43,793 nt of DNA from Candidatus Binataceae bacterium (GTDB taxonomy: Bacteria; Desulfobacterota; Binatia; Binatales; Binataceae), in the NCBI GenBank assembly GCA_049281755.1, contig JBAPSR010000073.1, positions 1-43,793 of the forward strand, given 5' to 3'. The notes beneath the pieces were generated by a model, which did not search any database, was not told where the DNA came from, and saw nothing but the letters and a program-made list of their open reading frames with translations. How positions within the stretch are numbered: the stretch's first letter is position 1; every line of letters begins with the position of its first letter. Of this stretch, positions 27,191 through 42,077 are shown in pieces. The position numbers and the translations under genes were made by a program.

Positions 27191-28480
27191 GTGTCGGGGT
27201 CGAAGGTGAGCATCATCTATCCAAAGGACTATTCGTCCGCGAGTATTCAGAGAGTTCTGGATGCCGCCGACTCCGAAGTGCTATTTCTCGGCGATCCGCG
27301 TGTGACTATCGAGCCTGGACCGCGCATGTTCGATCGGATGGCTCAGGTCATGCACGAAACCGGCGCCGGCTGGGTTTATGCCGACGCGGTGAGCCATCCT
27401 CGTATCGACTATCAAAGCGGCAGCATCCGCGATGGGTTCGATTTCGGCCCAGTAGTCGGCGTGTCGGTTCGAGCCGCGCGTCAGTCAGGAATCGACAGCG
27501 CCTGGAAATGGGGAGGACTATACGACCTACGGTTGAGGATTTCTCAACAGCACGCCATCGTGCGGATTCCCGAACCATTGTACAGCGCGTCGATGGTTGA
27601 TGCCCGGCCGCCAGGTCAACAGCAATTCGACTATGTGGATCCGCGCAATCGCGATTACCAAATCGAAATGGAGCGAATCGCGACCGCGCATCTAAAGCGA
27701 ATCGGCGCCTGGTTGCAGCCGTATTTCGAGAAAGTTACAGCCACGGCAGAAACATTTCCGGTGAAAGCCAGCGTCGTCATACCGGTTCGGAATCGCGAGC
27801 CGACAATTCGAGACGCCGTTCAAAGCGTCCTCGCCCAGAGCGTTGATTTTGAATTTAATGTGATCGTGGTCGATAACCATTCGACGGATCGAACGACAGA
27901 AATCTTGCGTGGCATTAGCGATTCGCGTGTCAAACACATCGTTCCAGAACGCCGGGACTTGGGAATCGGCGGATGTTGGAACGAGGCGATCTATTCCAGG
28001 GACTGCGGACAATACGCCATCCAACTTGATTCTGACGACCTGTACGTCAATGACGGTGTCATTCGCCGGATCGTCGCAGAGCTTGAAGCGGGCCCTTATG
28101 CGATGGTCATAGGCTCCTACACGATGGTCGATTTTTCGCTGAAGGAGATTTCACCCGGTCTCATAGACCATCGCGAGTGGAGCCGCGAGAACGGAAGAAA
28201 TAATGCGCTCCGTGTCAATGGTTTGGGCGCGCCGCGCGCATTCAATACCTCGGTTTTGCGCCGTATCGGATTTCCGAATGTCAGCTATGGCGAGGATTAC
28301 GCCGTAGCGCTCCGCATCAGCCGCGATTACGAGATCGGCCGGATTTACGACTCGGTTTATCTTTGCCGCCGTTGGGAAGGCAATAGCGACAGCGCGTTGC
28401 CACTCGAGGTTGCGAATCGGTACGATTCGTATAAGGACTGGCTCCGAACTACCGAGATGCAGGCGCGGATCCGGGGATGA
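27191..28480 (+). CDS. family-2 glycosyltransferase with ~190-aa N-terminal extension of unknown function
   Basis: GT-A core: 'ASVVIPVRNREPTIRDAVQSVLAQS', 'VIVVDNHSTDRT', 'QLDSDDLY' (DxD). GAGGAG lies upstream of GTG 27191. Confidence 0.8.
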   Translation: MSGSKVSIIYPKDYSSASIQRVLDAADSEVLFLGDPRVTIEPGPRMFDRMAQVMHETGAGWVYADAVSHPRIDYQSGSIRDGFDFGPVVGVSVRAARQSGIDSAWKWGGLYDLRLRISQQHAIVRIPEPLYSASMVDARPPGQQQFDYVDPRNRDYQIEMERIATAHLKRIGAWLQPYFEKVTATAETFPVKASVVIPVRNREPTIRDAVQSVLAQSVDFEFNVIVVDNHSTDRTTEILRGISDSRVKHIVPERRDLGIGGCWNEAIYSRDCGQYAIQLDSDDLYVNDGVIRRIVAELEAGPYAMVIGSYTMVDFSLKEISPGLIDHREWSRENGRNNALRVNGLGAPRAFNTSVLRRIGFPNVSYGEDYAVALRISRDYEIGRIYDSVYLCRRWEGNSDSALPLEVANRYDSYKDWLRTTEMQARIRG

Positions 28481-29370
28481 TCCACGAACTGGAAGATCTG
28501 TTTGAGCGGCAGACGCGGACATGGCCGCAGCTCGCGCAAGGTATTGAAGGCCTGGCGCGGGCGAAAACACGGCCGGTACGGATCGACTGGTTCGACATTT
28601 TCATCCGCCACATTCCCCATCGCTTGGGCAGTACCACTGCTTCGGTCGACCGGGAGTCGGTTGCGAACCGGCCCTGTTTCTTATGTGCAGGAAATCTTCC
28701 TCCAGAGGAGGAAGGTGTGCGGTTTGATGAGGATTTCACGATCTACTGCAATCCCTTTTCAATCGTGGATCGTCACCTGACGATCGCCCACAGGAAACAT
28801 GGTTCGCAGCGCATCGCGAATCAGTTTGGAACAATGTTGGCCCTTGCTGCGGCGTTGCCGGGATATTTCGTCATCTATAACGGTCCGGAATGCGGGGCGT
28901 CCGCACCAGACCATATGCACTTTCAGGCAGGCTCGCGAAGATTGTTTCCGATCGAGAAAGACACCGCCGGACTGACTGGCATCGCCGTGCCGAACTACGG
29001 AAGAAATGTGCTCTTGTTTCGTGAAACGGATCGGTCTGCTTTGATCCGTCGAATGGATCGCGCCCTCGACCTGCTCGCGGAAATGACCGGCAAACGCGCA
29101 GAACCGATGGTCAATATTGCGGTCATTCATCAGAAAGGAGAGTGGGTCACGTATCTGTTCCCGCGAGGAAAACACCGGCCAGAGGTCTTCCACACAGGCG
29201 AACTGACGGTGAGTCCGGCATCGATTGATTTGTGTGGAATATTGGTTGTGCCTCTGGCACAGGATTTTGAAAGAATCACGGCGGACGCGATTGTCGCAAT
29301 TTTCCGAGAGGTCACTTTGCCTGACGGTCAGTTTCAGGAAGTCGCCAAGAAACTGGAGGCTGAGCGTTGA
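28477..29370 (+). CDS. DUF4922 / GDP-hexose phosphorylase-like HIT-superfamily protein
   Basis: ATGA overlap with the GT2 stop. 'APDHMHFQAG' is the HxHxQ motif of the GalT/VTC2 branch of the HIT superfamily. The 'CFLC' region lies upstream. Confidence 0.6.
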   Translation: MIHELEDLFERQTRTWPQLAQGIEGLARAKTRPVRIDWFDIFIRHIPHRLGSTTASVDRESVANRPCFLCAGNLPPEEEGVRFDEDFTIYCNPFSIVDRHLTIAHRKHGSQRIANQFGTMLALAAALPGYFVIYNGPECGASAPDHMHFQAGSRRLFPIEKDTAGLTGIAVPNYGRNVLLFRETDRSALIRRMDRALDLLAEMTGKRAEPMVNIAVIHQKGEWVTYLFPRGKHRPEVFHTGELTVSPASIDLCGILVVPLAQDFERITADAIVAIFREVTLPDGQFQEVAKKLEAER

Positions 29371-30587
29371 ACGTATCTGTAGGCCTGATGGAAAGGCAAT
29401 CCGCGGTTGAAGTGGAATTGATCGGCAGGTTTACGGACACTTCCGGCAAGCCGTACATTTCCGGGCGCTACAGATTTGCTTCTGAAGTGACGCTTACTGC
29501 GTCGGACCTGGCAGTGTGCGCGTTTGCGCTGGACGACGTCACGATCGGAATTGGATTTCATTGGGAACGCAAGGAGCGCCAGGTATTCCGTGGAGCTCTT
29601 CGCCTCATAAAACGAGAAGCCGGTCTGACGGTGATTAATGATGTTTCGCTCGAAGAGTACGTCACCAGCGTGATTTCATCTGAGATGAGCGCGTCTTGTC
29701 CTCTCGAACTGCTGAAAGCTCACGCGGTGATTTCGCGCAGCTGGCTGTGGTTTCCAAAAGCAACTCCCTCTGCGCCCGAGAAAAGACAGAGTCAGGCTCT
29801 CGATTCTCACGAAATTCTTCGCTGGTACGGGCGCGAAGCGCATCCGGATTTTGATGTGTGCGCCGACGACCACTGCCAGCGCTATCAGGGCATCACGAAA
29901 ATGTTCTCAGCGGCTGCAGCTGACGCGGTTCGCGCTACCGCCGGCGAGTTTCTCCGTTACCACGGCGCTATCTGCGACGCCCGGTTTTCCAAGTCCTGCG
30001 GCGGAATAACCGAGCGCTACGCGACCGCTTGGGAAGATCAGGATATTCCCTATCTCAGATCTGTTTACGACGGTGCGGCACAATCGCGCGCTTACAGTCC
30101 TGAAACATGGATCCGCTCGAGCCCGGAGGCTTACTGCAATACGGACGATTCGGAGCTCCTCTCACGCGTTCTCCCGGGGTTCGACCAGGAAACCCGCGAT
30201 TTCTTTCGATGGAAGGTCGCCTACACGCCCGAAGAACTCGCCGATCTGATCTGTTCGAGGATTGCCGTGGACCTTGGTCCGATTCGCGACATGCAGGCAG
30301 TCGCCCGCGGACCTTCAGGCCGGATATATCGGCTGAAGATCATCGGCACACGCGATCACGTCACCGTCGGTAAAGAACTGGAAATTCGCCGGGCTTTGTC
30401 GCGCACGCATCTCTACAGCTCTGCATTCGTCGTAGACAACGAGTCTGGCCGTTTTGTCTTGAGAGGAGCCGGCTGGGGACATGGTGTCGGCCTATGCCAG
30501 ATCGGCGCGGCAGTTATGGCAAACGAGGGCAAGCCCTACTCAGAAATCTTGCAGCATTACTATCGTGGAACCACCGTTAGCGTTTGA
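29367..30587 (+). CDS. SpoIID/LytB domain protein (peptidoglycan lytic transglycosylase / amidase enhancer family)
   Basis: TTGA overlap with the upstream stop; an alternative ATG is at 29388. Motifs: 'VISRSWLW', 'DVCADDHCQRYQG', 'FSKSCGGITE', 'GWGHGVGLCQIGA'. Confidence 0.8.
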   Translation: MNVSVGLMERQSAVEVELIGRFTDTSGKPYISGRYRFASEVTLTASDLAVCAFALDDVTIGIGFHWERKERQVFRGALRLIKREAGLTVINDVSLEEYVTSVISSEMSASCPLELLKAHAVISRSWLWFPKATPSAPEKRQSQALDSHEILRWYGREAHPDFDVCADDHCQRYQGITKMFSAAAADAVRATAGEFLRYHGAICDARFSKSCGGITERYATAWEDQDIPYLRSVYDGAAQSRAYSPETWIRSSPEAYCNTDDSELLSRVLPGFDQETRDFFRWKVAYTPEELADLICSRIAVDLGPIRDMQAVARGPSGRIYRLKIIGTRDHVTVGKELEIRRALSRTHLYSSAFVVDNESGRFVLRGAGWGHGVGLCQIGAAVMANEGKPYSEILQHYYRGTTVSV

Positions 30588-30632
30588 TTTCCGCGCCGCC
30601 CGACCAACTGACCTCCGGGTTGCGAAAGGACG

Positions 30633-31124
30633 TTACCTGAGTGGCGGCAACGCGATTGGATCAGGAAGTTGCGACGCGGGCCAGGGGCGGTTGTGCTTCG
30701 CCGCGATCTCGCCGACGACACGCTCCCAGCGCTCCTTCCCGAAGCTCTTGTAGGTCTGGAACGGATTGACGTATTCGCGCATGCGAAACGCCCGATCGTT
30801 TCTGATCGTGATCAGGGTGAAATAGCGCTGCGTATAGCGGCCGCCGTCCACGGTATCGCCACCGCCTGATGATTCCACGATGGTGGTATCCGGATCGGCT
30901 GTGGGATACACCGCCGCCGGCTTTGTGCTGAAACGCGGAACCACGCTCAGCAGAAATTCCATAAAACGGCTCACCGCCTCGAACCCGATCAGCGTCACCG
31001 GGATCTCGAACGTCGGACCCTCCCAGATGGCGTCCTCGTGCAGGGCATCGAGCCAGATGGCGCGCTGTTCTTCCAAGGTGGTGATCTTGCCGCCGAAGGC
31101 GTCACCGAGGTTCTTCCGGGCCAT
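30633..31124 (-). CDS. NTF2-like (SnoaL/PhzA-B-like) small protein
   Basis: 163-aa ORF of the size and alpha+beta pattern typical of NTF2-fold proteins; no diagnostic motif. It lies directly downstream of the BVMO on the same strand. Confidence 0.4.
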   Translation of the reverse strand: MARKNLGDAFGGKITTLEEQRAIWLDALHEDAIWEGPTFEIPVTLIGFEAVSRFMEFLLSVVPRFSTKPAAVYPTADPDTTIVESSGGGDTVDGGRYTQRYFTLITIRNDRAFRMREYVNPFQTYKSFGKERWERVVGEIAAKHNRPWPASQLPDPIALPPLR

Positions 31125-31209
31125 GGGCTGTCTCCTTTGCGCGTCTTACTAGAACGATTTCCTCGCGTCGATAGTGCAACAAAGATGAAAGGGTGGAAAC
31201 GACACGCGC

Positions 31210-31231
31210 CGCCGTCCAGATCGGGACGGCG
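31210..31231 (-). terminator. possible terminator hairpin downstream of the BVMO gene
   Basis: CGCCGTCC-agatcg-GGACGGCG forms an 8-bp GC stem. The T/A-rich flanks are weak on both strands. Confidence 0.3.
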
Positions 31232-31263
31232 CGCTTTCTTGGAAAAAACGTTAGGCTCGCTGC

Positions 31264-33084
31264 TTAGCTCAACTCGAGGCCTTCGAGGTCACCCTTCTCG
31301 CGCCACTTCTTCATCAGCGCGTTGAACGCGTTGATGCCCGGCGCATACGCGTTGGCGCCAAAGCCGTCGGACCCAGGTTCGAAGTGGCCCTCGTTGTTGT
31401 AATATCCAGGCGTGCAGTTCGCCAGGAAGCGCGCCGCGACCACCGCGAGGCGTTTGATTTCGGCGACCCACTCCGTCTCTGCTTCTTTAGTCGGCTGCGA
31501 GTAGCGAACCCCCCGGTTCATCACCTGTTTGATGATGTAGCCGATGTGCTGGGCCTGGTCGTCCAGGACCGAGGTCAGGTTGACCGAAGCGCCGTTCTGC
31601 GACTGCCCCAGGATGAAGCAGTTGGGGAAGCCGTGACTGGAGAAGCCATGGTAGGTCTTCATCCCGCCGGTCCAGTAATCGGTCAAGGTGACGTCGTTCA
31701 TGCCGATGACTTCGTAGCCCGCGCGCCGAGTCCATGCTGTGCCGACCTCGAATCCGGTGGCGAAGATAATGCAATCGACGGGGTACTCGATGCCGTTCGC
31801 AACGATACCGGTCTTGGTGATCCGCTCAACGCCCTGGCTGTCGCTGGTGTTGATCAGCTTGACGTTCGGTCGGTTGAAGGTTGGCAGATAGTCGTCGTTG
31901 AACGTCGGCCGCTTGCAGAACTGGCGGTACCAGGGCTTCAGTGCCTCGGCAGTGGCCCGATCGGCGACGGTTTGGTCAACCCGTGCGCGGACGCCGTTCA
32001 TTTTCTGAAAGTCGGCGATTTCCATGAGCATCGCTGTCTGGCGCTTCGAGAGTTCGGCTGCGCGGGCGGACTTTTTCGCCGCGACGCCGAGGTTACGAAA
32101 GATGTCGGTCCAGCCATCGTTGACAAGGTCTTTTTCGACCGGAACGCCGATAACCATGTTGTTGAAGTTCTCGCGCCGCTCTCGCTGCCATCCAGGCTTC
32201 AGATTCTTGGCCCATTCGGTATCGGTTGGTTTGTTTCCCCGCACATCTACTGACGAGGGGGTGCGCTGGAAGACATAGAGTTGCTTGGCGTGCGCGCCGA
32301 CGAACGGCACGCATTGGATGGCGGTAGCGCCGGTGCCGATTACCGCCACGCGCTTATCTGCGAGCTTGGTCAGGCCGCCCGAGTGGTCGCCCCCGGTGTA
32401 GTCATAATCCCAGCGGCTGGTATGGAAGGTGTGGCCCTCGAAGTCAGCGATGCCAGGGATTGCGGGCAATTTTGGTCGGTTTAGAGGACCGGTAGCCATA
32501 ACCACGAAACGGGCCCGCATCGCATCGCCACGGTCGGTCGAGACGATCCAGCGCGCGACATCCTTGTCCCAGCGCAGTTCCGACACTCGCGTTTGGAAAC
32601 ACGCCTTGTCGTATAGGTTGTAGTGTTTTGCGATACGCCGCGAGTGCTCGTAGATCTCGGGTGCGAAGGAATACTTCTCCTTCGGCATGTAGCCGAGCTC
32701 TTCGATCAGCGGCAGGTAGCAATAGCTTTCGATGTCGCACTGGGCGCCCGGATAGCGATTCCAGTACCAGGTGCCGCCGAAGTCGCCGCCGGACTCAATG
32801 ATTCGAACGTCGTTGATACCGGCCTCGTGGAAACGCGCGCCGGCCAGCAATCCGCCGAAACCTCCCCCGATAACTACCACATCGATCTCGTCGGTCAGCG
32901 GCGCGCGATCAAAAGGTTTCACATAAGGGTCGTCCAGATAGTGAGCGAACTTGCCGGCCACTTCGACGTATTGCGCATTGCCGTCGGTGCGAACGCGCTT
33001 GTCACGCTCCTGCTTGTATTTCTCGCGCAGGGCGTCCGGATCGAAATCCAGCTTCAGGTCAGCGATAAAGGTCGAATCTTCCAT
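31264..33084 (-). CDS. type I Baeyer-Villiger monooxygenase (FAD/NADPH-dependent)
   Basis: 'VVVIGGGFGGL' (FAD GxGxxG). 'GGTWYWNRYPGAQCD'. BVMO fingerprint 'FEGHTFHTSRWD' (FxGxxxHxxxW[P/D]). Second Rossmann motif 'VAVIGTGATAIQ'. Confidence 0.9.
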   Translation of the reverse strand: MEDSTFIADLKLDFDPDALREKYKQERDKRVRTDGNAQYVEVAGKFAHYLDDPYVKPFDRAPLTDEIDVVVIGGGFGGLLAGARFHEAGINDVRIIESGGDFGGTWYWNRYPGAQCDIESYCYLPLIEELGYMPKEKYSFAPEIYEHSRRIAKHYNLYDKACFQTRVSELRWDKDVARWIVSTDRGDAMRARFVVMATGPLNRPKLPAIPGIADFEGHTFHTSRWDYDYTGGDHSGGLTKLADKRVAVIGTGATAIQCVPFVGAHAKQLYVFQRTPSSVDVRGNKPTDTEWAKNLKPGWQRERRENFNNMVIGVPVEKDLVNDGWTDIFRNLGVAAKKSARAAELSKRQTAMLMEIADFQKMNGVRARVDQTVADRATAEALKPWYRQFCKRPTFNDDYLPTFNRPNVKLINTSDSQGVERITKTGIVANGIEYPVDCIIFATGFEVGTAWTRRAGYEVIGMNDVTLTDYWTGGMKTYHGFSSHGFPNCFILGQSQNGASVNLTSVLDDQAQHIGYIIKQVMNRGVRYSQPTKEAETEWVAEIKRLAVVAARFLANCTPGYYNNEGHFEPGSDGFGANAYAPGINAFNALMKKWREKGDLEGLELS

Positions 33085-33389
33085 TTCTTATCCCACCTGT
33101 CTTTCATCGTTCGCGCGCGAATAGTGTGGAGGAGATGATTCTCTATTGCCGGAAATGCTGCGAAGAGAATTACTCTCCTTCACATTATTCATTCGTGCTG
33201 GCTACTCACGACGTTTCGCGATAACCGGTGCCCTGTGATCGATGCTGGCGCGCCGATGCACTATTATCTAATTTCGTATCCGCGACCATTGCGCCAGGGA
33301 GCTACCATAATACGGTTCGCGGGATATGATACGCATGCTCCGCCAATTCCGAGGTTGAGTGCCGCGCCGGTCTGACTCTTTGTTGCTCG

Positions 33390-34505
33390 TCAAATCAAAC
33401 CGTAACATCGTGCGGCATTGTCGCCCATAATCTTGCGCTGGGATTCTCTGGGCAATACGGCACAGTGCTCCCGCAATTCCGCGACCGCCCCCGGAAATTC
33501 ACAGTCGTAATGAGGATAATCGGATGCCCACATTATCACTGAGTCCAGGCGCAAAATCTCTATCGCCTTAAGTACTACGTCGTCTGGCTCGCATGAGCAG
33601 AAACACTGACGCTGAAAATATTCGCTGGGTTTCATTCGCACCTTGGGCACCATATGTCCGATCTTCTCATGAAATTCGTCCAGCCGTGCCAGCCACCACG
33701 GTACCCAACCGCCGCCCGCTTCTAGAAACGCGATCCTGAGCCGCGGATATCGGTCAAGAACTCCGCTGCAGATAAGGTCCATGCACGCCATCTGTTGTTC
33801 CAGCGGATGCGAGATGATCATACGCTGAAAGAAGTCGTGGTACCGATCGAATCCGGCAGTAGGCATATCGCCGCCCACTGCGCCGTGGAGAGCGATAGTA
33901 CAATCGAGCTCTTGCGCTTCGGCCCAGAACGCCTCGTTGGAGGGATCGCTTAGTAGTCGGCCGTTATATGGATTTGACCGCACCATAACGGCCTTCACCC
34001 CATGTTCCCGAACGACCCGGCGCATTTCCGCGATCGCCGCGCCAACCTCCTGAAGCGGGACCGGCGCGACGGAGTAGAGACGATCTCGCGCGACGGCGCA
34101 GAAATCATTCATCCAATTGTTGTAGGCGCTACACGCTGCCGCCGATATCTCAGGATCGGCTATAGCCACGAATCCGAGCGCGACGGAAGGGAAGAGAACC
34201 GAGACGTCGATGCCCTCTGAATCCATATCTATAAGGCGGGCGTGAGGATCGAAACTTCCCGGACGCAGATCGTCCCACGATAGTTTCCGCATCGACTCCG
34301 TGCTGATGAGCCCGCCCGGTATGCACATGGCAGCGGGCGCATAGATGCTACCCGTGGGCATCCGGTCGCCGATCGCAATCCGATCGATCCCGTCGGAATC
34401 TTTCGTGACCCGTGGAATCCGATCGCGAAATTCAGGCTCGACGTAGTCTTGCCAAAACGAGCGCGGCTCCACGATATGACCGTCTGAATCAATCACCTTG
34501 CTCAT
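33390..34505 (-). CDS. amidohydrolase_2 (ACMSD/LigW-like metal-dependent hydrolase/decarboxylase) family protein
   Basis: ATG 34505 ('MSKVIDSDGHIVEP'). 'ALHGAVGG', 'HPLEQQ' and 'WASDYPHYD' fit the family's metal-ligand pattern. Confidence 0.75.
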   Translation of the reverse strand: MSKVIDSDGHIVEPRSFWQDYVEPEFRDRIPRVTKDSDGIDRIAIGDRMPTGSIYAPAAMCIPGGLISTESMRKLSWDDLRPGSFDPHARLIDMDSEGIDVSVLFPSVALGFVAIADPEISAAACSAYNNWMNDFCAVARDRLYSVAPVPLQEVGAAIAEMRRVVREHGVKAVMVRSNPYNGRLLSDPSNEAFWAEAQELDCTIALHGAVGGDMPTAGFDRYHDFFQRMIISHPLEQQMACMDLICSGVLDRYPRLRIAFLEAGGGWVPWWLARLDEFHEKIGHMVPKVRMKPSEYFQRQCFCSCEPDDVVLKAIEILRLDSVIMWASDYPHYDCEFPGAVAELREHCAVLPRESQRKIMGDNAARCYGLI

Positions 34506-34856
34506 TGAATGAAGCCCCGAGCTTATAAAGCGTGTGAAAATCTTGGCATTGTTGATGGCTCCTTGACAATGGTCGACGAGTTGAGTCTTGAACGAGCCAG
34601 GTCGCTCGGAGCAGCAAGCTACCAAGCACCTTCAATTGCTCGGCGACTGCGCGCCTCTGTTGATCGATTGTAGCGGTGGCGGCATTTTTCTAGCGAGCCC
34701 CCGCGGAACAAAATAGCTTCAGATCAGGCAGACGACCGTTATCACGAGCAGATCGACTCGATGGGTCCAGGCGTCGCTGCGCGTCGTCGCGTCAGCCGAC
34801 TCTAATGCTCGGTAGAGAGCGTTGCATAGTTTTCCTTCTGAAACGCGGACAGTTAA

Positions 34857-35873
34857 CTAGCGATATTCGTCGCCGCAATCGCCGATCAGCTTCATCAAGT
34901 CGCGCGATTTTGCGAGCACCGCATCGATGCTGGCATAATCTTCGGTATCGAGAGCGAGGCCAAACGCGCGCGCATTGTCGGCGATATGCTGTGCTACACC
35001 GAGCCGCGTGCCCACGATTGCGCCAGCCACCCCTGGACGGTCCAGGATGTAGCGCACGCCGACGTTGGAGATACCCACTTGATGCTTGTCGGCGATCGTC
35101 CTCAGAACGCCGAGCAGTTCCTGAAACAACGCCCATCCGCCCCACGTATCGATCATGTTGCCGTATTTCTGCAGCGATGCGGTGATGAGTTCGCTCCGGC
35201 GCGGCTGGGGCACGCCCAGATATTTCTCCGAGAGCAGTCCGCCGAGGACAGTTCCATAGGCGAGCAACGTGATTCCGTGATCTCGGCAGAACGCCGTCAT
35301 CGCAACCGCGGGCCGGCGATCGACGAGCGAGTACTGCACCTGGTTCGACACGATGCGGATGCCGCGATCCGTGATGATGCGAAGACGTTCGGTGTCGAAG
35401 TTGGTGAGCGCGAGATGTCGAATTTTGCCGTCATGCTGCAAGTCGCTCAGATGCTTGAGCGCGTCGAGATAGCCGGTATCCTCATAGTCCCACCAGTGAA
35501 ATTGCAGCAGGTCAAGACACTTGACGCTCATTCGCGAGAGCGAGAGTTCGATCGCGTCTTTAACCATGACTCGCGTCACTCGACCTGGCCGCGGAACCCA
35601 CTTGGTGAATGCCTGAATTTCTGTAAGCCGCGCGGCCCCGTGCCGCGCGGCGAACTCGCGTCGGAACTCTGCGATGAAATCCTCGGCGGGACCGTAATGG
35701 TCAGCAAGATCCCACGTGGTGAACCCGGCGTCGTGATAAGCGAACATCTCGGCGATTGCGCGAGAGGGTTCGATATAGCCGTGCGCGCCGGAGATTTGCC
35801 ACATGCCGTTGAGAATGCGGCAGATGCTGAGATCGGGAGCGAACTGGAACCGACTCGATGCTGGTAACGCCAT
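34857..35873 (-). CDS. aldo/keto reductase
   Basis: ATG 35873 lies after a GGAAAGGAAA purine tract; the 419-aa ORF-track version is over-extended. Motifs 'WDLADHYG' (D..Y) and 'HLALTNF'. Confidence 0.8.
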   Translation of the reverse strand: MALPASSRFQFAPDLSICRILNGMWQISGAHGYIEPSRAIAEMFAYHDAGFTTWDLADHYGPAEDFIAEFRREFAARHGAARLTEIQAFTKWVPRPGRVTRVMVKDAIELSLSRMSVKCLDLLQFHWWDYEDTGYLDALKHLSDLQHDGKIRHLALTNFDTERLRIITDRGIRIVSNQVQYSLVDRRPAVAMTAFCRDHGITLLAYGTVLGGLLSEKYLGVPQPRRSELITASLQKYGNMIDTWGGWALFQELLGVLRTIADKHQVGISNVGVRYILDRPGVAGAIVGTRLGVAQHIADNARAFGLALDTEDYASIDAVLAKSRDLMKLIGDCGDEYR

Positions 35874-36006
35874 TTTCCTTTCCTCAGCTCCGCGCCCGAT
35901 TCTAGCGCTTGAGGAGCGGCTCGCGAAGTTCACAGCATGACCCGTACGGGGTGATTCGGTGCTAAGGTTCCACCCACCCAAACGGCACGCGCGGGGAAGA
36001 TAGTCC

Positions 36007-36873
36007 ATGAAAATCGGCGTACTCGCATTTCTCACCGAGCAATCGGGAAATCCAGGCGCAATCGCACACGAGGTGGAGAACCTCGGCTTTGAATCGTTCT
36101 TCGTCGCAGAGCACATGGCGGTCCCGAGCAGCTACACGACGGATTATCCGCGATCGCACGACGGGAAAGTCCTTGAATTCTACGCGCGATTGATCGATCC
36201 GTTCGTCGCGCTTGCGATCGCGGCCGATTCGACCTCGCGGATCAAACTCGGCACCGCGATCTGCCTGCTGCCGCAGCGCAACGTTCTTGAAACGGCGAAA
36301 GTGACGGCGTCGATTGATCTCTACTCGAAGGGACGGCTCATCCTTGGTGTCGGCGCAGGATGGTTCCGCGAGGAAGCGCAGGTCATGGGCGTCGATTTTA
36401 CCCGGCGCTGGCAGCATCTGCGCGAAGCGGTCGAGGCCTTGCGCCTGCTGTGGAGCGCTGATGACGTCAGTTACTCAGGCGAGATCGTGAAATTTCCTTC
36501 CGTGAAGCTCGGGCCCAAGCCGGTGCAGAAACCAGGGCCGCCGATATTGCTCGGCGCGCACGATCCAAAGTACGCGCTCAAACGGGTTGCGCGCTACGCT
36601 GATGGATGGTGCCCGGGCGGACTGAGCGTTGAGAAGGCGCGTGAGTGCATTCCGCAAATAAAGAAGATGGCCAAGGAATTCGGCCGCGATCCCGCCAAGC
36701 TCGAGTTTTCCGTGCTGTTGATGGGCGCCGAAGGGCCGACCGCTGATGCGATGAAGCAATACCAGGAGGCGGGCGTGAGCCGGCTAGTCGTCGCGGCGTC
36801 AGCGGTGTCGGAAGACGGCGTTAAAGTGGTGCGCGGACTCGGATCGATCGTCGAGCGCGCGGCGAAGCTATAG
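36007..36873 (+). CDS. LLM-class F420-dependent oxidoreductase (luciferase-like)
   Basis: Motifs 'GFESFFVAEHMAVP', 'IKLGTAICLLPQRN', 'GRLILGVGAGW'. It resembles the Rv2161c-type LLM subfamily, judged from memory. Confidence 0.8.
   Translation: MKIGVLAFLTEQSGNPGAIAHEVENLGFESFFVAEHMAVPSSYTTDYPRSHDGKVLEFYARLIDPFVALAIAADSTSRIKLGTAICLLPQRNVLETAKVTASIDLYSKGRLILGVGAGWFREEAQVMGVDFTRRWQHLREAVEALRLLWSADDVSYSGEIVKFPSVKLGPKPVQKPGPPILLGAHDPKYALKRVARYADGWCPGGLSVEKARECIPQIKKMAKEFGRDPAKLEFSVLLMGAEGPTADAMKQYQEAGVSRLVVAASAVSEDGVKVVRGLGSIVERAAKL
36802..36836. repeat. 35-nt repeat, copy 1 (inside the LLM gene 3' region)
   Basis: GCGGTGTCGGAAGACGGCGTTAAAGTGGTGCGCGG matches 38899-38933 at 33/35. It is in codon phase 1 in both genes and encodes AVSE(D/G)GVKVVRG. 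Confidence 0.9.
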
Positions 36874-36939
36874 GACCTCTAGTTTGCGGGGCGGACAATT
36901 TTCGAAGCTGATGACCTCCGCCTGGGGAGGAACCTCCAG

Positions 36940-37935
36940 ATGAGTGCCAGCAAAATCAGGATTGGGATTCTCGGCGTGGGCGCAATGGGATCGGAGCATG
37001 CCGGTTCCCTCCTCAATGTTCCCGGCGTGGAAGTTGTGGCGGTTTTCAGTCGTGATCGCGGCCGCGCGGCAGCAGCAGCCAAGACTTGCGGCGCGAAGCC
37101 GACCATCGATGCCATGGAAGTCATCGCCCATCCCGCTGTCGATGCAATCGACGTCTGTGTTCCCAGCGTGAACCATCGTGAGTTCGTAATCGCCGCCATC
37201 AAGCACGGCAAACACGTTTTCTGCGAAACGCCTTTCGCGCTTTCGATCGAAGACGGACGCGCGATGATCGATGCTGCATCCCAATCCAAGCGCATCCTGA
37301 TGGTCGGACTTTTGATGCGCTCGATCGCGCATTATGAGCATGCGTATCGGGCTGCCCGTTCGGGCGAGCATGGAAAATTGCTAGGAATCACGGCCTATCG
37401 CCTCGGATCGTACCTGCATCCAGGGGCCCCTGATCACAAATCGCACTATTCCGATCCATCGACCGAGTTGATGACCTTCGATTTCGATTTCATCCAGTGG
37501 CTGATGGGGCGGCCGGACCGCGTCAGCGCATCCGCGATTGCCTCTGAGCGCGGCATTCCCGGCGAGATTTCGGCGGTCCTAGGCTATGACGACGGGCGCA
37601 GCGCGACAGTGCTGGCCAGCGGTCTAATGCCAAAGAGCTTTCCATTCTCCGTCGGCTATCGCGCGGTTTTCGAAAGGGGTGCATTGGACCTTCAGAATGT
37701 ATTCGAGGCGGGTCCGCCGAAAACAAATTTCACCTTCTACCCCGCCGAAGGCTCGGCGCAGCGGGTCGAGGTTAACGGCGATAATCCTTACGAAAAGGAA
37801 TTGCGGCTCTTCGCCGAAGCTATCCGAGACGAAACCGCCGGAGATTTGCTCGCACCCGAGCACGCAATCAACGCGCTCGTGCTCTCGATCGCCACACAGA
37901 GATCGATGCGCGAGCGGCGCGCGATCGAATTATGA
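36940..37935 (+). CDS. Gfo/Idh/MocA family NAD(P)-dependent oxidoreductase
   Basis: 'IRIGILGVGAMGSEH' Rossmann motif. 'VFCETPFA' is an EKP-motif variant. GGAGG lies 9 nt upstream of ATG 36940. Confidence 0.8.
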   Translation: MSASKIRIGILGVGAMGSEHAGSLLNVPGVEVVAVFSRDRGRAAAAAKTCGAKPTIDAMEVIAHPAVDAIDVCVPSVNHREFVIAAIKHGKHVFCETPFALSIEDGRAMIDAASQSKRILMVGLLMRSIAHYEHAYRAARSGEHGKLLGITAYRLGSYLHPGAPDHKSHYSDPSTELMTFDFDFIQWLMGRPDRVSASAIASERGIPGEISAVLGYDDGRSATVLASGLMPKSFPFSVGYRAVFERGALDLQNVFEAGPPKTNFTFYPAEGSAQRVEVNGDNPYEKELRLFAEAIRDETAGDLLAPEHAINALVLSIATQRSMRERRAIEL

Positions 37936-38031
37936 AGGATCCGGCAACGACCGCGTGAGAGAAACCCAACGCTCACGTGAAAATCGGCCGGCGCCTGAAT
38001 TTGCCGGATCGTCGCGCGCTCGGAGGAACTT

Positions 38032-38943
38032 ATGATGAGACCGACCAGCCTCGGCGGAAGCTTCACGTTCGCAAAGACTTCGCTGACCGTGAACCGCATG
38101 GGTTACGGCGCGATGCAGCTGGCCGGCCCCGGCGTATGGGGCCCGCCCAAGGACCTCGACGGTGCCGTCGGCGTCCTTCGCGAGGCCGTCGCGGCAGGCG
38201 TGAACCACGTTGACACGGCCGACTACTACGGGCCGCACGTCACCAACCAGATCGTCCGGCAGGCGCTGCACCCGTACCCTGCGGGGTTGGTGATCGTCAC
38301 CAAGCTCGGGGGACGGCGCCCTCCCGACAAGTCGTGGCAGCCGGCTATCTCGCCCCAGGAACTTACGGCGGGTGTGCACGACAACCTGCGAAACCTGGGT
38401 CTCGACGTTCTCGACATCGTTAATTACCGCGTGATGGGGTCGGGCCACGGCCCCGAGGAGGGGTCCATCGCCGAGCAGATGACGGTGCTGGCCGACCTCC
38501 AGCGCAAGGGACTGATCCGTCACATCGGCCTGAGCAACGTCACGGCCTCTCAAGTGGCCGAAGCGCAGGCAATCACCGACATCGTATGCGTGCAGAATAA
38601 CTATAATCTGGCCTACCGCCGCGACGACACCCTTATCGACGAGCTTGGACGACAGGGCATCGCTTACGTGCCATTCTTTCCGCTGGGAGGATTCGCGCCG
38701 CTGCAGTCCGCTGCCCTCGACGCGGCCGCAGCGTTCATGAAGGCGAAACCGATGCAGGTAGCGCTGGCATGGCTGCTTCAGCGCGCGCCAAACATCCTGC
38801 TGATTCCCGGTACATCGTCGCTCCACCATCTACGAGAGAATCTCGAGGCGGCAACGCTGCAACTCTCTCCGGAAACGATCGCAGAACTCAACGCAATCGC
38901 GGTGTCGGAAGGCGGAGTTAAAGTGGTGCGCGGTAGATGCTGA
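38032..38943 (+). CDS. aldo/keto reductase with a chimeric C-terminal tail
   Basis: GGAGG lies 5 nt before ATG 38032. Motifs 'VNHVDTADYYG', 'HIGLSNV', 'LLIPGTSS..HLRENL'. The last 15 codons derive from the 35-nt LLM-like repeat. Confidence 0.85.
   Translation: MMRPTSLGGSFTFAKTSLTVNRMGYGAMQLAGPGVWGPPKDLDGAVGVLREAVAAGVNHVDTADYYGPHVTNQIVRQALHPYPAGLVIVTKLGGRRPPDKSWQPAISPQELTAGVHDNLRNLGLDVLDIVNYRVMGSGHGPEEGSIAEQMTVLADLQRKGLIRHIGLSNVTASQVAEAQAITDIVCVQNNYNLAYRRDDTLIDELGRQGIAYVPFFPLGGFAPLQSAALDAAAAFMKAKPMQVALAWLLQRAPNILLIPGTSSLHHLRENLEAATLQLSPETIAELNAIAVSEGGVKVVRGRC
38782..38901 (+). repeat. 120-nt direct repeat, copy 1 (AKR 3' coding end); partner 40474-40593
   Basis: Constant offset of 1692 nt with no indels. 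12 mismatches in 120 nt, counted by hand. Confidence 0.9.
38899..38933. repeat. 35-nt repeat, copy 2 (tail of the AKR gene)
   Basis: See 36802-36836. It begins exactly where the 120-nt AKR repeat homology ends. Confidence 0.9.
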
Positions 38944-39317
38944 GGTCTTCTGGATTGAACCTAGCGTCCAGGCTCTTCCACAAGAAACCGGCTCGTGCGA
39001 AAGCAATGCACAGCAAGAGAATCGCGATCGGCCAGCGATTCAACGCCATCGCGATCCCGCTTGCGGATATGAGCGGATTCTGGCGAGTTTCGTCTTTGAT
39101 TCCGACGTATCCGGTCACGCCCCGACCCCCACGACCTCAGACCCAACGCCGCGCCGCAGCGGCGCTATCGGTGATCCACGCTTACACCACGAATCATCAT
39201 AGTCAGCACGCGATCGAAAAGGGAGATGGGGACAACGCGGGATTTTTCGCGAGACGATACGAAGTAGGCATACCGACGCTAGTGATTTTGAAGGTCACGC
39301 CCGACGGTGGAGTCAAG

Positions 39318-39842
39318 CTAATGTTCCTCGCCGCGGAGCCTTAGAATTGTATAATAGATGACGAGTAAGACGAAAGGCACGGAAATGACCATTCCAGGGC
39401 CAACGATATGAAGGCTTGCGATCATCAGTCCTAGCCAGAGAATAGCGAGTGTGAGTCGAACTTCGTCGCTACGCCGCTCCCATACGATCCCGATCCCAAG
39501 CAACAGCGGGCTGAGTGCAAGGAATCCGTAAAACTCTCCAAATCTGACTGATAGGGCGGTTTCCGCGACGAAACCTGCGAAAGACACCGTGGCCGCCACT
39601 GGTTTTAGAATGAAATCTTGATCAGGGCGTGACCCTCTAGGCAAATCTAGGATGAACCCAAATAACATAACGAGATGCCAATAGTAAAGATCCACACAAG
39701 CAGCTTCAAAAAGTGCTTCGATACTCATCCTGCTGCCAGATTGAACCCACCCGACGAGCGCGATCGCGAGTCCCACAACCGCGCCCGGCAGCAAGAAGTA
39801 TTTAAGCCATTGACGCAGGATTGCCGCTGTATCAGAAGTCAT
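39318..39842 (-). CDS. polytopic (~6 TM) membrane protein, unknown family
   Basis: ATG 39842-39840 overlaps the TGA (39841-39839) of the YD-repeat fragment as an ATGA junction. Six hydrophobic segments. GC is clearly lower: 54% and 41% in two hand-counted 100-nt samples. Confidence 0.55.
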   Translation of the reverse strand: MTSDTAAILRQWLKYFLLPGAVVGLAIALVGWVQSGSRMSIEALFEAACVDLYYWHLVMLFGFILDLPRGSRPDQDFILKPVAATVSFAGFVAETALSVRFGEFYGFLALSPLLLGIGIVWERRSDEVRLTLAILWLGLMIASLHIVGPGMVISVPFVLLVIYYTILRLRGEEH

Positions 39843-40473
39843 CGAGAGTTGATCAACCTCTTCCACGTGGCCGTTGGCATAGCGGCCGGCAGATTTACCG
39901 CCGCCAGACTGCCGCCGAGACTGTTTACCCGGCCATCGTTGTCATAACCGTAGGTGAGGTTGCCCAGCGTGCCCCCGCCTGTGCTGCTGTAGCTTATCGA
40001 AGTCGGATGCGAGTCCGCGTCGTACTGGTTGTAGTTGACCGTAACTCCATTCGGAAGCGTGAGGGCGGTGTAGCGGCCGTCGGAATCGTATGAAATGCCC
40101 ACGCTCTGCGCGCCCCGGCTTTCCGAGGTCAGGTGATTGTCCTTGTCGTAGCCATAGCTTGTTTGCGCCTGACTTCCCGCGGTCATCGTCAAGCGGTTCT
40201 GATCATTGTCGTAGGTGTAGGTGACGGTGTTGTTCAGCGGGCTCGACGCATAAGAGGCCGTGAGCATGTCATCCAGCCCGTCATAAGTCGCGGACAGTGT
40301 GTCAATCACGCTCGACGTTCCCTGATTATCCTGCGCGCTGGTCAGGCGGTTTCCGCCGTCGTAGGTATAGACGGTTCGGGTCTGATTGTAGCCCTGTTTA
40401 TTGGTGGTGTTGTAGCTCGCTTCCGTCAGCCGGTTAAGCCCGTCGTAGGTGAAGCCCGAGGTGAGGTTGCGCC
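39839..40473 (-). pseudogene. 5'- and 3'-truncated RHS/YD-repeat protein fragment
   Basis: Eight YD repeats, including 'FTYDGLNRLT', 'YTYDGGNRLT', 'YTYDNDQNRLT', 'YGYDKDNHLT', 'ISYDSDGRYT' and 'YGYDNDGRVN'. No N-terminal domain, no PxxxxDPxGL core end, no toxin domain. The first 38 codons of the 249-aa ORF are antisense to an AKR fragment. Confidence 0.75.
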
Positions 40474-40611
40474 CGCGCGCGAAACATTCTGTTGATTCCC
40501 GGTACATCGTCGATTCACCATTTACGAGAGAATCTCGAGGCGGCGGCGCTGCAACTCTCTCCCGATACAATCGCAGAACTCGACGCAATCGCGATCGGCC
40601 CTAAGGGGTAG
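40474..40611 (+). pseudogene. displaced aldo/keto reductase 3' fragment (contains copy 2 of the 120-nt repeat)
   Basis: Translates in frame as 'NILLIPGTSSIHHLRENLEAAALQLSPDTIAELDAIAIGPKG*', compared with 'NILLIPGTSSLHHLRENLEAATLQLSPETIAELNAIA' in the intact gene. There is no upstream coding part. Confidence 0.85.
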
Positions 40612-40623
40612 TCCCCTGAAGGG

Positions 40624-40938
40624 GTTGTCGATGCCTGCGAAAATTCAGCTGGATCAGGCTTACGGCTTCGACGGACCGATCCCCGTTACCAAGGTGAGAA
40701 TTGCGACGCCAATGTGAAGGCGGCGCGGATGGTGTACGATTTCGCCGCGGCCAACCACGCGAAGCCCGGACAGATCGCCCTCGCATGGCTGTTGCAGAAA
40801 GGCTAGGACATGGCGCCGATTCCCGGCACCAAGCGGCGCAAATATCTTGAGGAGAATCCCTCGGCTCCGGGGGCACATCTCTCCAGGCGGATGCATGGCG
40901 ATGATCTGCAGATCTGTCGCCCTAAGAATCGAAGGTAA
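40624..40938 (+). pseudogene. second aldo/keto reductase 3' fragment (different AKR subfamily) with in-frame stop
   Basis: Frame reads '...[62 protein letters not shown]...'. TAG at 40804-40806 interrupts conserved AKR C-terminal blocks. The N-terminal two thirds are missing. Confidence 0.75.
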
Positions 40939-41110
40939 ATGCGTGGCGATGATTCGCGGACCGAGCAGATTCGCGCCCGGATAGGTTTTGCGCGATTCTG
41001 CCGATTTGCGCCGCCCAATGCGCTCTCCGGGTCTGCGTGGATCGCGAATCGCGCGCACACGCGCGGTTTGCGAACGATTCTCCGCGATGTCCGAAAATCG
41101 AGAGACTGGT

Positions 41111-41186
41111 TGGTGGAGCAGAAGGGATTTGAACCCTCGACCCCCGCGTTGCGAACGCGGTGCTCTCCCAGCTGAGCTACTGCCCC
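41111..41186 (-). tRNA. tRNA-Ala (anticodon CGC)
   Basis: Reverse complement: GGGGCAGTAGCTCAGCTGGGAGAGCACCGCGTTCGCAACGCGGGGGTCGAGGGTTCAAATCCCTTCTGCTCCACCA. It folds as a cloverleaf with a G3:U70 Ala identity pair, anticodon loop TTCGCAA, TPsiC loop TTCAAAT and an encoded CCA. Confidence 0.95.
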
Positions 41187-41210
41187 ATCCTGTCCGGAGA
41201 TTGGTAGTGA

Positions 41211-42077
41211 TTATGACGCCAGAATCGTTTGCAAGTAAGAGCGCAACCTATCAGCCAGATCGGGCCGTTTCAACCCGAAGCCGACCTGCGCGGCGATAAA
41301 GCCAACTCTGTCGCCAAGGTCGTAACGCACGCCCTCGAACTGATAGCCGTAGAGCTTGCGCCGACGCGCCAGCGCCATCAACGCGTCGGTTAATTGAATC
41401 TCGCCGCCGGCTCCAGGTTTTCCCGAGGCGAGAAGCTCGAAGATGTCCGGCGTCAGGACGTAGCGCCCCATGATCGCGAGGTCGCTCGGCGCTTTGTCGA
41501 TCGGCGGCTTCTCGACCATCCCGGTGAGCTCGTAGAGCCGATCACCCGCGGGCTTCGCCTCGACGATCCCGTATTTAGGAATCTCGCTGCGCGCGACTTT
41601 CAGCAGCGCGACCACGGGCGCGTCCTTGTCCTCGGCCGCGGCGATCATCTGCGCAAGACACGGGCGCGGACAGTCGAAAATATCGTCGGGCAGCATCACG
41701 GCGAACGGCTCGTCGCCGATCGCCTCGCGCGCCTGCAGAACCGCGTGGCCGAGTCCCAGCGGTTTGGCCTGCTCGACGGCGGTGAATCGCGCGAGCGTGT
41801 TGGTGCGCCGCACGGTCTCGAGGACCTCGTGTTTACCGCGCTCTTCAAGATGCATTTCGAGTTCTTGCGCGGCCTTGAAGTGATCGAGAACGATCGTTCG
41901 TCCCGGAGCCACGACGACGAAGATGTCGCGGATTCCGGAGGCGACCGCTTCTTCGACCACCACCTGGATCGCCGGCGTATCGATCACCGGCAGAATTTCC
42001 TTGGGAATAACTTTCGACGCCGGAAGCATCCGCGTGCCCAGACCGGCCGCGACAATAACCGCCTTGGTGATTTTCAT
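41211..42077 (-). CDS. galU: UTP--glucose-1-phosphate uridylyltransferase
   Basis: 'KAVIVAAGLGTRMLPASKVIPKEILPV' nucleotidyl-transferase signature. 'LGLGHAV' and 'VEKP' motifs. 288 aa. Confidence 0.9.
   Translation of the reverse strand: MKITKAVIVAAGLGTRMLPASKVIPKEILPVIDTPAIQVVVEEAVASGIRDIFVVVAPGRTIVLDHFKAAQELEMHLEERGKHEVLETVRRTNTLARFTAVEQAKPLGLGHAVLQAREAIGDEPFAVMLPDDIFDCPRPCLAQMIAAAEDKDAPVVALLKVARSEIPKYGIVEAKPAGDRLYELTGMVEKPPIDKAPSDLAIMGRYVLTPDIFELLASGKPGAGGEIQLTDALMALARRRKLYGYQFEGVRYDLGDRVGFIAAQVGFGLKRPDLADRLRSYLQTILAS

Follow-up and report, generated by a model that had tools for sequence, protein, structure and literature searches.

The DNA analyzed here, a 43.8-kb stretch referred to as the window, originates from the soil bacterium Candidatus Binataceae and carries an insert of about 1.7 kb within the final 120 bases of an aldo/keto reductase (AKR) gene. 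The insertion-bearing form of this gene (38032 to 38943, plus strand) encodes a PRK10376-type protein of 303 amino acids. Residues 22-289 match Pfam PF00248 (E 3e-47; profile positions 1-289 of 291) and residues 8-291 match NCBIfam NF007695 (profile positions 7-288 of 290) with 486.7 bits, exceeding the curated cut-off of 280 across the full-length profile, which places the protein in the PRK10376 subfamily. Orthologs were found in 80 loci of GTDB species representatives, none of which shows synteny with the neighbours of the AKR gene in the window. Compared with the best ortholog (L001), the identity is 89-90% up to position 38900. The AKR is found across many phyla at 70-89% identity, and the C-terminal tails are highly variable.

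The 3' end of the AKR gene is present twice, as direct repeats at 38782-38901 (left copy) and 40474-40593 (right copy), both on the plus strand. The copies are identical at 108 of 120 positions and have a constant offset of 1692 nt. An earlier note on this DNA described this pair, with its 12 mismatches and zero indels, and it was reproduced by self-BLAST, in which it is the strongest repeat of the window (E = 1e-40). Translation bears out that both copies keep the AKR reading frame. The longest identical run between them is 22 nt and no exact 31-mer is in common; the upstream edge of the pair is marked by CGCGCGC, an identical stretch of 7 nt.

The left copy is the AKR 3' end now in use and resembles the allele of a related locus, L107. 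It had been described as the end of an intact AKR gene. The gene is indeed intact, as the PF00248 and NF007695 matches indicate, but its very end is not AKR sequence, as the homology stops at 38901 and the last 14 codons (VSEGGVKVVRGRC and the stop) come from a separate repeat. The right copy is the displaced native 3' end. Sequence derived from AKR extends on this side from 40473 to at least 40622, includes the native stop TAG (40609-40611) and continues for 11 nt past it. Over 40474-40622, including 29 nt beyond the repeat, it is 91.9% identical to L001, and the tail AIAIGPKG, the stop and the downstream 29 nt are as in this ortholog; it also matches an uninterrupted allele from sequencing run X5. 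With its own stop codon and downstream sequence, the right copy is an orphan 3' fragment, as the earlier note had proposed. The AKR retains its complete catalytic domain and carries a new 14-residue tail, while the old 3' end persists as a non-functional orphan.

Most of the new C-terminal tail is encoded by a third repeat, which had been missed in the earlier note. Positions 38899-38933 (plus strand) copy 36802-36836 (plus strand) at 33 of 35 sites. The latter is the source-type sequence of this patch and forms the tail of an F420-dependent luciferase-like (LLM) oxidoreductase gene (36007-36873, plus strand; Pfam PF00296, TIGR03619), 2.1 kb upstream of the patch. At junction J1 (about 38899-38901), the AKR gene is fused to the LLM patch, with GCG common to both sides. 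The LLM tails of the window and of L107 are mutually identical and share 2 differences from the patch among its 35 sites. The patch is followed by a spacer (38934-39317) without family assignment and without homology in any fetched locus. Part of a truncated minus-strand gene, its first ~40 codons, may lie in the spacer (MALNRWPIAILLLC..., 39049 to 38934), and a 135-aa plus-strand ORF in it, which has no family, is probably spurious. A relation of the plus-strand ORF 38937-39344 to an RNase E/G gene was also considered and set aside, as the common 42-nt match is not significant.

Rhs-derived sequence in the insert

The remainder of the insert consists of two minus-strand coding regions. The first (39318-39842) encodes a membrane protein of 174 amino acids with about six predicted helices, and its ATG overlaps the stop codon of the adjacent RHS fragment (ATGA). 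The protein has zero Pfam or NCBIfam matches and is very rare, with only itself found in 5.8 billion clusters and two relatives in 1.84 billion representatives. It is tied to Rhs in four other loci. A 45%-identical full-length homolog adjoins an RHS fragment in L101, other homologs lie beside an RHS fragment in L104 and near a YD-shell gene in L102, and in L100 the homolog is located downstream of a full-length RHS gene. The alignment of this family has 19 invariant columns. The AlphaFold model is all-helical, with a pLDDT of 50, a low confidence that is too poor for a fold search. Transcription evidence for the gene consists of a single 151-nt metatranscriptome contig. Its gene neighbourhood makes the protein a candidate Rhs immunity protein, and through the insertion the strain may have gained a Rhs-linked membrane protein gene that is a potential orphan immunity gene.

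The second region (39867-40472) is an internal YD-repeat (RHS) fragment of about 200 amino acids (PF05593, E 8e-14), the relatives of which at 77-79% identity are annotated as RHS. The fragment lacks the N-terminus, the RHS core end (DPxGL) and the toxin domain. It is 78% identical at the nucleotide level to positions 9842-10440 of L100, and 39701-39866 matches L100 11580-11748, so that junction J5 (39866/39867) corresponds to a 1.14-kb deletion relative to L100. In L100, these 1.14 kb encode the Rhs_assc_core (TIGR03696, E 1e-22) and about 80 further residues of C-terminal domain; an RHS-associated core with DPxGL and a C-terminal toxin domain are absent from the window. As the fragment contains only internal YD repeats without core end or toxin domain, it is not an expressible orphan toxin.

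At junction J3 (40472-40474), the RHS frame (GRN...) meets the AKR sequence, with CC in common. The YD fragment had been reported to begin at the nucleotide where the right copy ends; the YD-repeat homology instead ends at about 40466-40474, where the right copy starts. The mechanical YD ORF starts at 40588 and for its first 38 codons reads the AKR in antisense. A related RHS contig in run X3 continues past 40466. The same soils were searched for a parental Rhs locus in intact form, and the only match, 43 nt at 93%, continues as RHS.

The description of the insert as lower in GC is only partly true. It applies to the membrane-protein gene (0.51-0.54 over 39200-39950), whereas the RHS part has 0.57-0.59 and the flanks 0.59-0.67. 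Pfam and NCBIfam searches of the insert ORFs (38937-39344, 39318-39866 and 39839-40588) matched only RHS_repeat and no recombinase domain, in line with the earlier statement that the insert has no recombinase gene. Promoter and terminator scans of 38.6-41.3 kb gave results at or below chance.

Occupied and unoccupied alleles

Independent assemblies of no fewer than 10 public runs, together with an NCBI MAG and a JGI metagenome, contain the insertion arrangement. Independently assembled contigs from runs X1-X4 span every junction. A Logan contig of 3180 nt (L091) covers 37839-41018 at 99.9%, the NCBI MAG GCA_049676145.1 (L081/L090) matches over 12.6 kb at 99.8%, and a contig of JGI 3300031708 (L083) covers J3. 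Exact scans of JGI contigs for J1 and J3 gave 0 hits, so L083 evidently lies outside the scanned collection. The population evidence consists of short-read unitigs and contigs and error-prone long-read contigs, not phased reads. The window is itself a metagenome-derived contig, and mis-joins typically arise at repeats and in mixtures of strains. Nevertheless, the two copies have no exact 31-mer in common and no identical run longer than 22 nt, and the same arrangement was obtained from many runs through three pipelines. With every junction spanned in this way, a metagenomic assembly chimera, which the earlier note had raised as a concern, is extremely improbable.

Unoccupied target sites are also present in relatives and in co-occurring strains. 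A contig of 1075 nt from run X5 joins 38308-38780 directly to 40473-41074, has 0 differences over 40473-41074 and equals the right copy at all 12 differing sites. Minor 81-nt unitigs in runs X1 and X2 contain the same joint, with depths of 2.8 against 8.2 (X1) and 3.9 against 8.4 (X2). In all three runs, the sequence before 40473 is the AKR body with 38760C. In L107, which is ~96% identical over 12 kb, the AKR gene is likewise uninterrupted and continues directly into 40594-41136. The direct connection in relatives between the AKR gene and the sequence from 40594 onward, which the earlier note had suggested looking for, thus exists in X5, X1/X2 and L107. X5 also contains pieces of the insert at similar depth, and both forms may coexist in X5, or Rhs DNA may also be located elsewhere in the genome. 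The coexistence of occupied and unoccupied alleles in the same soils indicates that the event is recent and open to population-level study.

The two copies correspond to different natural alleles. The window is almost identical to L107 over 37200-38852, and its upstream SNPs 38760A and 38781G equal the chromosomal allele of L107. Within the repeat, the left copy is identical to L107 over 38782-38852 and 38878-38901, with five clustered differences at 38853-38877; of the 12 differing sites, L107 has the left-copy state at 7 and the right-copy state at 5. While the repeat copies differ at 12 of 120 positions, the flanks of the two haplotypes differ by <0.5%. The four C/T differences between the copies are synonymous without exception, and the residues that differ also occur in orthologs, which indicates that both copies evolved within working genes. 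All six right-copy-specific differences are located at C on the plus strand, within 57 nt of J3. Clustered DNA damage in the right copy was considered as a cause but discarded, since none of the four C>T changes alters an amino acid and the uninterrupted gene uses this very allele.

Searches for a donor of the left copy found no locus closer than 109/120, and no extra left-type contig was found in runs X2, X3, X8 and X15. No contig combined the left-type allele with the native tail, and none carried J1 or J3 alone. Recurrent orphan AKR 3' fragments were also considered, as many 'AKR C-terminal proteins' of 50-90 aa are present on long contigs; the two that were checked are frameshift splits in error-prone long-read contigs rather than orphans.

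Origin of the insertion

The empty-site forms support the earlier proposal that an insertion or recombination into the AKR 3' end provided the gene with a new end and pushed the old one aside. We consider it moderately probable that the locus is a strain-level insertion polymorphism, in which two AKR alleles overlapping by 120 nt were recombined through homology on one side and illegitimately on the other. This would resemble homology-facilitated illegitimate recombination (HFIR), as defined in PMC3240628. An L107-like allele would account for the gene body with the left copy, as far as 38901, and the uninterrupted allele found in X5 for the sequence from 40473 onward, with the right copy, native stop and downstream DNA. 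Between these alleles would lie the 35-nt LLM-tail copy and about 1.5 kb of Rhs-locus DNA, made up of the membrane-protein gene and the internal RHS fragment, minus the 1.14 kb that includes the toxin end.

In such an event, DNA of a closely related strain would have recombined with the resident chromosome. The homologous side could lie in the AKR body or, alternatively, in the DNA that follows the right copy downstream; the opposite side would have been joined illegitimately at a microhomology of 2-3 nt, through HFIR or an equivalent break repair copied off a foreign template. Both kinds of boundary are present. No novel joint separates the AKR body from the left copy, or the right copy from downstream DNA that is identical to the empty-site allele, while microhomology is found at J3 (CC, RHS/AKR) and J1 (GCG, AKR/LLM patch). 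J1 and J2 around the LLM patch and J5 in the RHS part may have been present in the donor already, or may reflect template switches during the same event. An HFIR-type insertion would arise from linear foreign DNA taken up by transformation or conjugation. Under HFIR, the LLM patch, which at 2 of 35 sites differs from both known LLM tails, requires an extra event.

HFIR has been put forward to explain how toxin 3' ends are displaced and orphan immunity genes retained in T6SS (Vibrio cholerae) and Rhs loci (PMC5361080). The AKR locus is similar in that homology would hold one end of the incoming DNA while a short microhomology of a few bases joins the other, unrelated sequence is captured between them, the former 3' part of the gene survives downstream as an orphan, and the captured DNA comes from a toxin locus with a putative immunity gene. 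It differs in that the displaced end belongs to a housekeeping-type reductase instead of a toxin gene, a 120-nt duplication is present instead of the usual deletion of recipient DNA, and one junction contains a 35-nt templated patch; the mechanism here is deduced from the assembled DNA. The insert also resembles the orphan modules and C-terminal displacement arrays of Rhs loci: its truncated RHS fragment precedes a small gene, the two overlapping at ATGA, and two further Binataceae loci (L101, L104) have homologs of this small gene next to RHS fragments. Unlike these modules, the fragment here consists of internal YD repeats only and lies outside any Rhs locus.

Integrase-driven elements that target the 3' end of a gene carry a substitute gene end in their attachment site, as islands do in tRNA genes. 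The element e14 and phage 21 integrate into icd and leave an icdC 3' pseudogene (Hill et al. 1989, via PMC13626634). As with e14, the insert here lies within the 3' end of a metabolic gene, a slightly different functional end is supplied, the original end is left as a short pseudogene on the far side, and uninterrupted alleles occur in the population. However, e14 is a 15-kb prophage with its own integrase that is excised by site-specific recombination, whereas the insert is 1.7 kb without recombinase, has illegitimate-looking junctions and carries a new end that is an ordinary chromosomal allele. That the insert is the remnant of an integrase-driven element that targeted the AKR 3' end and was later deleted down to 1.7 kb is an unlikely reading, despite a layout like that of e14 (icd on one flank, icdC on the other; PMC13626634) and several internal deletion scars. 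In addition, each copy is of a single allelic type along its entire length, left and right being of different types, and the change from one to the other falls at the upstream repeat edge, at the CGCGCGC run, which would be compatible with an identical att core. Such elements are active in the lineage, as L107 contains an integrase-type displaced 3' end of tRNA-Ala near the locus. L107 retains only the 3' 26 nt of this gene; in the window, tRNA-Ala(CGC) (41111-41186, minus strand; ARAGORN) bounds the variable region outside the insertion, and a second copy of its 3' end, as an att remnant, is absent. Against an element stand the lack of an integrase or other recombinase in the insert and the RHS coding fragment, which directly abuts the AKR fragment so that an attachment-site arm would have no space. 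No larger version was seen in the ~14 contigs with the cargo gene. The left copy with 38760A and 38781G is as in the ordinary L107 allele, which is unexpected for a mimic borne by an element: its first 71 nt, last 24 nt and upstream SNPs equal L107, so the end is not an element-owned substitute. A decayed integrative element is less likely than HFIR-like recombination. Still further removed, and highly unlikely, is that the 1692-nt unit is a non-autonomous cassette that uses its own AKR 3' end as attachment site and an integrase in trans and delivers a Rhs immunity gene while sparing the target gene.

The two copies could also have arisen in situ, through a tandem duplication of ~36802-38901 or a 120-nt target duplication, with copies that were identical at first, the interior of the second unit being replaced by Rhs DNA and the copies later diverging by gene conversion. 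J1, which connects 38901 to 36802, would be the exact junction of a 2.1-kb tandem duplication. Yet beyond 38933, only 35 nt into the match, the sequence no longer resembles the LLM region and colinearity is lost, and the copies differ at 12 of 120 sites despite the nearly identical haplotype flanks. Each copy also matches a different natural allele, and later conversion would need a crossover within 7-24 nt of homology, which leaves this origin quite improbable. A similarly doubtful explanation is that the uninterrupted allele of X5 is secondary and arose by deletion between the repeats of the insertion haplotype. Direct repeats promote deletions, losses of e14 recur (PMC13626634), and insert sequences are also present in X5. 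Since X5 equals the right copy at 12 of 12 sites, however, the crossover would have to lie in the 7-nt run at the extreme edge and not in the identical blocks of 20-22 nt. The outgroup L107 is uninterrupted too, so an insertion is required in any case.

The locus is a clean natural case, in the uncultured soil lineage Binataceae, of foreign DNA trapped in a gene without destroying it: the incoming DNA supplies a working gene end and the old end stays behind. The insertion is real but a fairly ordinary recombination scar and does not overturn current understanding. If the membrane protein is an immunity protein, the locus would be a case of immunity genes spreading beyond toxin loci by illegitimate recombination, which would bear on how bacteria acquire protection against the toxins of their neighbours. 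The membrane protein and its homologs also define a Rhs-linked family that is very rare and had no name before.

The parallel that the earlier note drew with the RM block at 5-7.7 kb did not hold up: the repeats of that block are only 76% identical over 95 nt, and no contig that skips it was found in four runs. Two full tandem AKR paralogs, named in the note as an alternative, were not seen. The window does contain a second AKR remnant (40631-40960, plus strand; PF00248, E 1.3e-6, profile positions 222-273), but it belongs to a different subfamily and is also present in the empty-site form. This remnant is frameshifted, interrupted by an in-frame stop and shortened by a large internal deletion, and it shows 74% nucleotide identity to the second AKR in L019. 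It is unchanged in the empty-site contig of X5 and in L107 and is older than the insertion.

The aldo/keto reductase repeat pair

The 3' end of an aldo/keto reductase (AKR) gene is present twice in the window, as direct repeats at 38782-38901 (left copy) and 40474-40593 (right copy). These align gap-free at a constant offset of 1692 nt with 108 of 120 positions identical, and both are in the AKR reading frame, as the earlier note had described. The pair is the top repeat when the entire window is compared with itself (E 1e-40), and the longest exact run common to both copies is 22 nt. The left copy lies inside an intact AKR gene of 303 aa, which matches PF00248 (Pfam, E 3e-47) and NF007695 (NCBIfam, PRK10376 type; 487 bits, cut-off 280), reaching position 288 of 290 in the latter profile. 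The description of this copy as the end of that gene holds only in part, since AKR homology ends at 38901 and the last 14 codons are non-AKR. The stretch at 38899-38933 is a 33/35 match to 36802-36836, the tail of an F420-dependent luciferase-like (LLM) gene 2.1 kb upstream. The best AKR ortholog (L001, from a MAG labelled 'delta proteobacterium') is 90% identical to the window gene, ending exactly at 38900, and matches 40474-40622 at 92%, which covers the right copy and 29 nt further, stop codon included. This continuous match indicates that the right copy holds the native AKR end (…AIAIGPKG*, as in L001). In 80 orthologs, the C-terminal tails after '…ELDxI' are freely variable, so the new 14-codon tail is probably tolerated. 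No common gene neighbourhood around AKR was found in 80 species representatives.

The arrangement has been assembled independently several times. Four soil runs belonging to a single study (X1-X4) have Logan contigs across all junctions (e.g., over 38730-40453, 37167-39713 and 40418-41500). A single contig of 3180 nt (L091) spans 37839-41018 at 99.9%, the arrangement recurs in the NCBI MAG GCA_049676145.1 (99.8% over 12.6 kb), and the junction of RHS with AKR is bridged by a JGI contig (3300031708). A metagenomic assembly chimera, which the earlier note wished to see checked, is excluded by this recurrence, and also because identical runs of at most 22 nt are too short for a k=31 assembler to collapse or join the copies. 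At 38695 and 38697, two substitutions in a single AKR codon (GCG for ACC, Ala for Thr) occur in the window only, with A and C in all other assemblies (X1-X5, L107); they represent a rare variant or an error in the consensus.

Rhs-derived cargo of the insert

The insert, taken as 38782-40472, begins with the left AKR copy. The LLM-tail patch (38899-38933) is followed by an unassigned spacer (38934-39317), a minus-strand gene whose 174-aa product has about six hydrophobic helices (39318-39842) and an internal RHS fragment, also on the minus strand (39867-40472, PF05593). Of the lower GC content ascribed to the insert, only 39200-39950 stands out (0.51-0.54); elsewhere it is not clearly lower. 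The YD-repeat fragment adjoins the start of the right copy and not, as the earlier note had stated, its end. The mechanical ORF at 39839-40588 has 38 antisense AKR codons at its beginning, with the YD repeats running leftward from ~40474. The stretch at 39020-39056 (AATCGCGATCGGCC … TCAACGCCATCGCGATC) looks like the outermost 3' end of AKR (…LNAIAI…), either as a possible third remnant of tiny size or by coincidence in GC-rich DNA.

A frameshift-ridden long-read contig (L100) carries a full-length RHS gene from this family (78% identity over 39867-40465), with a further 1.14 kb that encodes the RHS-associated core (TIGR03696, DPIGL) and ~80 aa of C-terminal domain. About 250 nt after it lies a homolog of the membrane-protein gene, 85% identical over 39701-39866. 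This layout indicates that the window has a 1.14-kb deletion at 39866/39867, by which the toxin end was lost. For the membrane protein, Pfam and NCBIfam gave no match, a word index over 5.8 billion clusters found only the protein itself, and 1.84 billion representatives scanned in full with HMMER yielded two relatives. Both of these, and a full-length homolog (45% identical) in the Binataceae locus L101, adjoin RHS/YD genes, and the family alignment contains conserved motifs. The cargo originates from an Rhs locus, and by its position the membrane protein is a candidate Rhs immunity protein. Its AlphaFold model is helical with low confidence, and one metatranscriptome contig of 151 nt hints at transcription. 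An RHS segment of ~150 nt (…GYDNDGRVNSLGG…LPAAMPTAT), the one ending at the window's deletion junction, occurs twice in L101 (10112-10258 and 11998-12153) and in a second Binataceae locus, L104 (6542-6688 and 8428-8583). These pairs adjoin membrane-protein homologs and look like Rhs orphan arrays.

Uninterrupted alleles and the two copies

In X5, a run from another study, a 1075-nt contig fuses 38308-38780 directly to 40473-41074, the latter part without differences from the window. The same joint is found in 81-nt unitigs of X1 and X2, in which an AKR body with 38760C precedes 40473; unitig depth is 2.8 against 8.2 on the insert side in X1, and 3.9 against 8.4 in X2. Thus, both forms coexist in the same soils and are SNP-linked. 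A relative from another sample (L107, a 74-kb contig with ~96% identity to the window over 12 kb) has AKR directly before 40594-41136, the order that the earlier note had proposed to look for, which supports insertion into the AKR 3' end. Candidatus Binataceae is the name carried by the cluster mates (at least 90% identity) of three window proteins, GalU, Gfo/Idh/MocA and flavin monooxygenase.

The intact AKR end of L107 agrees with the left copy at six sites in 38789-38830 and at 38890, agrees with the right copy at five sites in 38853-38877, and has the native tail. Together with near-identity over 37200-38852, this indicates that the left copy, with 38760A and 38781G, continues an ordinary chromosomal allele. 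The X5-type uninterrupted gene uses an allele identical to the right copy. The copies are thus two natural alleles of AKR, joined in a chimeric haplotype. Damage-induced clustered mutation beside the breakpoint was ruled out, as all four C/T differences between the copies are synonymous changes, and the residues in which the copies differ (P/R, L/I, T/A, E/D, N/D) also occur in orthologs.

Divergence between L107 and the window is very uneven over 26946-38901: ~5% upstream of 36.8 kb and almost none over 37200-38852 (Gfo/Idh/MocA and AKR genes), which suggests that this segment recently recombined or swept between lineages. The Gfo/Idh/MocA gene (36918-37974) is found alone at 92% in a JGI contig (L108, 3161-4217) with a wholly different gene neighbourhood, similarity stopping at the gene borders.

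Recombination and neighbouring features

The feature is a recent recombination scar, in which the AKR end was regenerated and Rhs-locus DNA was carried in; the insertion or recombination with gene-end regeneration proposed earlier is supported by L107, the X5 contig and the X1/X2 unitigs. The junctions of unrelated sequences share only 2-3 nt, GCG where AKR meets the LLM patch and CC where RHS meets AKR. The best-supported reading of the two haplotypes and these microhomologies is homology-facilitated illegitimate recombination (HFIR, defined in PMC3240628), or an equivalent form of break repair with DNA of a related strain as the template. One side would have recombined by homology with that DNA and the other would have been joined illegitimately at 2-3 nt of microhomology, trapping non-homologous cargo between them. 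For the homologous crossover, any point in the near-identical AKR body or, alternatively, downstream of the right copy is possible. Both patch junctions and the deletion junction could have been present in the donor or have arisen by template switches during the same event; their origin, like the order of events and the anchor side, we can only infer. Searches for a donor allele or a single-junction intermediate found neither. HFIR has been proposed for T6SS and Rhs loci, where new toxin ends displace old ones and orphan immunity genes are left (PMC5361080).

An integrase-driven element of the e14/icd type (PMC13626634) that has since decayed would fit the layout, and such a site-specific model had been favoured by a left crossover and right junction that seemed to share one nucleotide, an apparent coincidence that L107 removed. 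This explanation fails: Pfam and NCBIfam profile searches of the insert found no recombinase gene, in agreement with the earlier note, there is no room for an attachment-site arm, and the 'substitute' AKR end equals a chromosomal allele. Tandem duplication in situ would account for the AKR/LLM-patch junction, but homology ends after 35 nt and each copy matches a different allele. The X5 allele could in principle be secondary, by deletion from the insertion form, although the crossover would be forced into a 7-nt run at the repeat edge and the outgroup L107 is uninterrupted anyway. Such a scar represents an already known kind of event, here in a little-studied lineage, and is of modest interest. 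Most worth follow-up are the rare family of Rhs-linked membrane proteins and the joint occurrence of both alleles in the same soils.

Short 'AKR C-terminal' proteins on long contigs were considered as further orphans, but the two checked are frameshift splits. Between the orphan AKR end and a tRNA-Ala(CGC) gene (41111-41186), a second AKR remnant of a different subfamily (40631-40960) has a frameshift, an in-frame stop and a missing gene middle. It is also present in the uninterrupted alleles and resembles a second AKR located 1.8 kb from the first on a Gemmatimonadaceae contig (L019). Similarity between the window and L107 stops 26 nt inside the 3' end of the tRNA gene; in L107 only this piece remains (12481-12506), and the genes after it, a 190-aa ORF and a sigma-54 activator, are unrelated. 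The piece is a classic displaced tRNA 3' end of the kind that an integrase-type island leaves, which makes tRNA-Ala an integration hot spot here. Elsewhere in the window, direct repeats at 5013-5105 and 7583-7677 (76% identity over 95 nt) enclose a 200-aa ORF and genes for a bestrophin-like protein and an N6/N4 DNA methylase, and four runs yielded no contig that skips this block. The repeats lie just upstream of the bestrophin-like gene and an acyl-CoA dehydrogenase gene.
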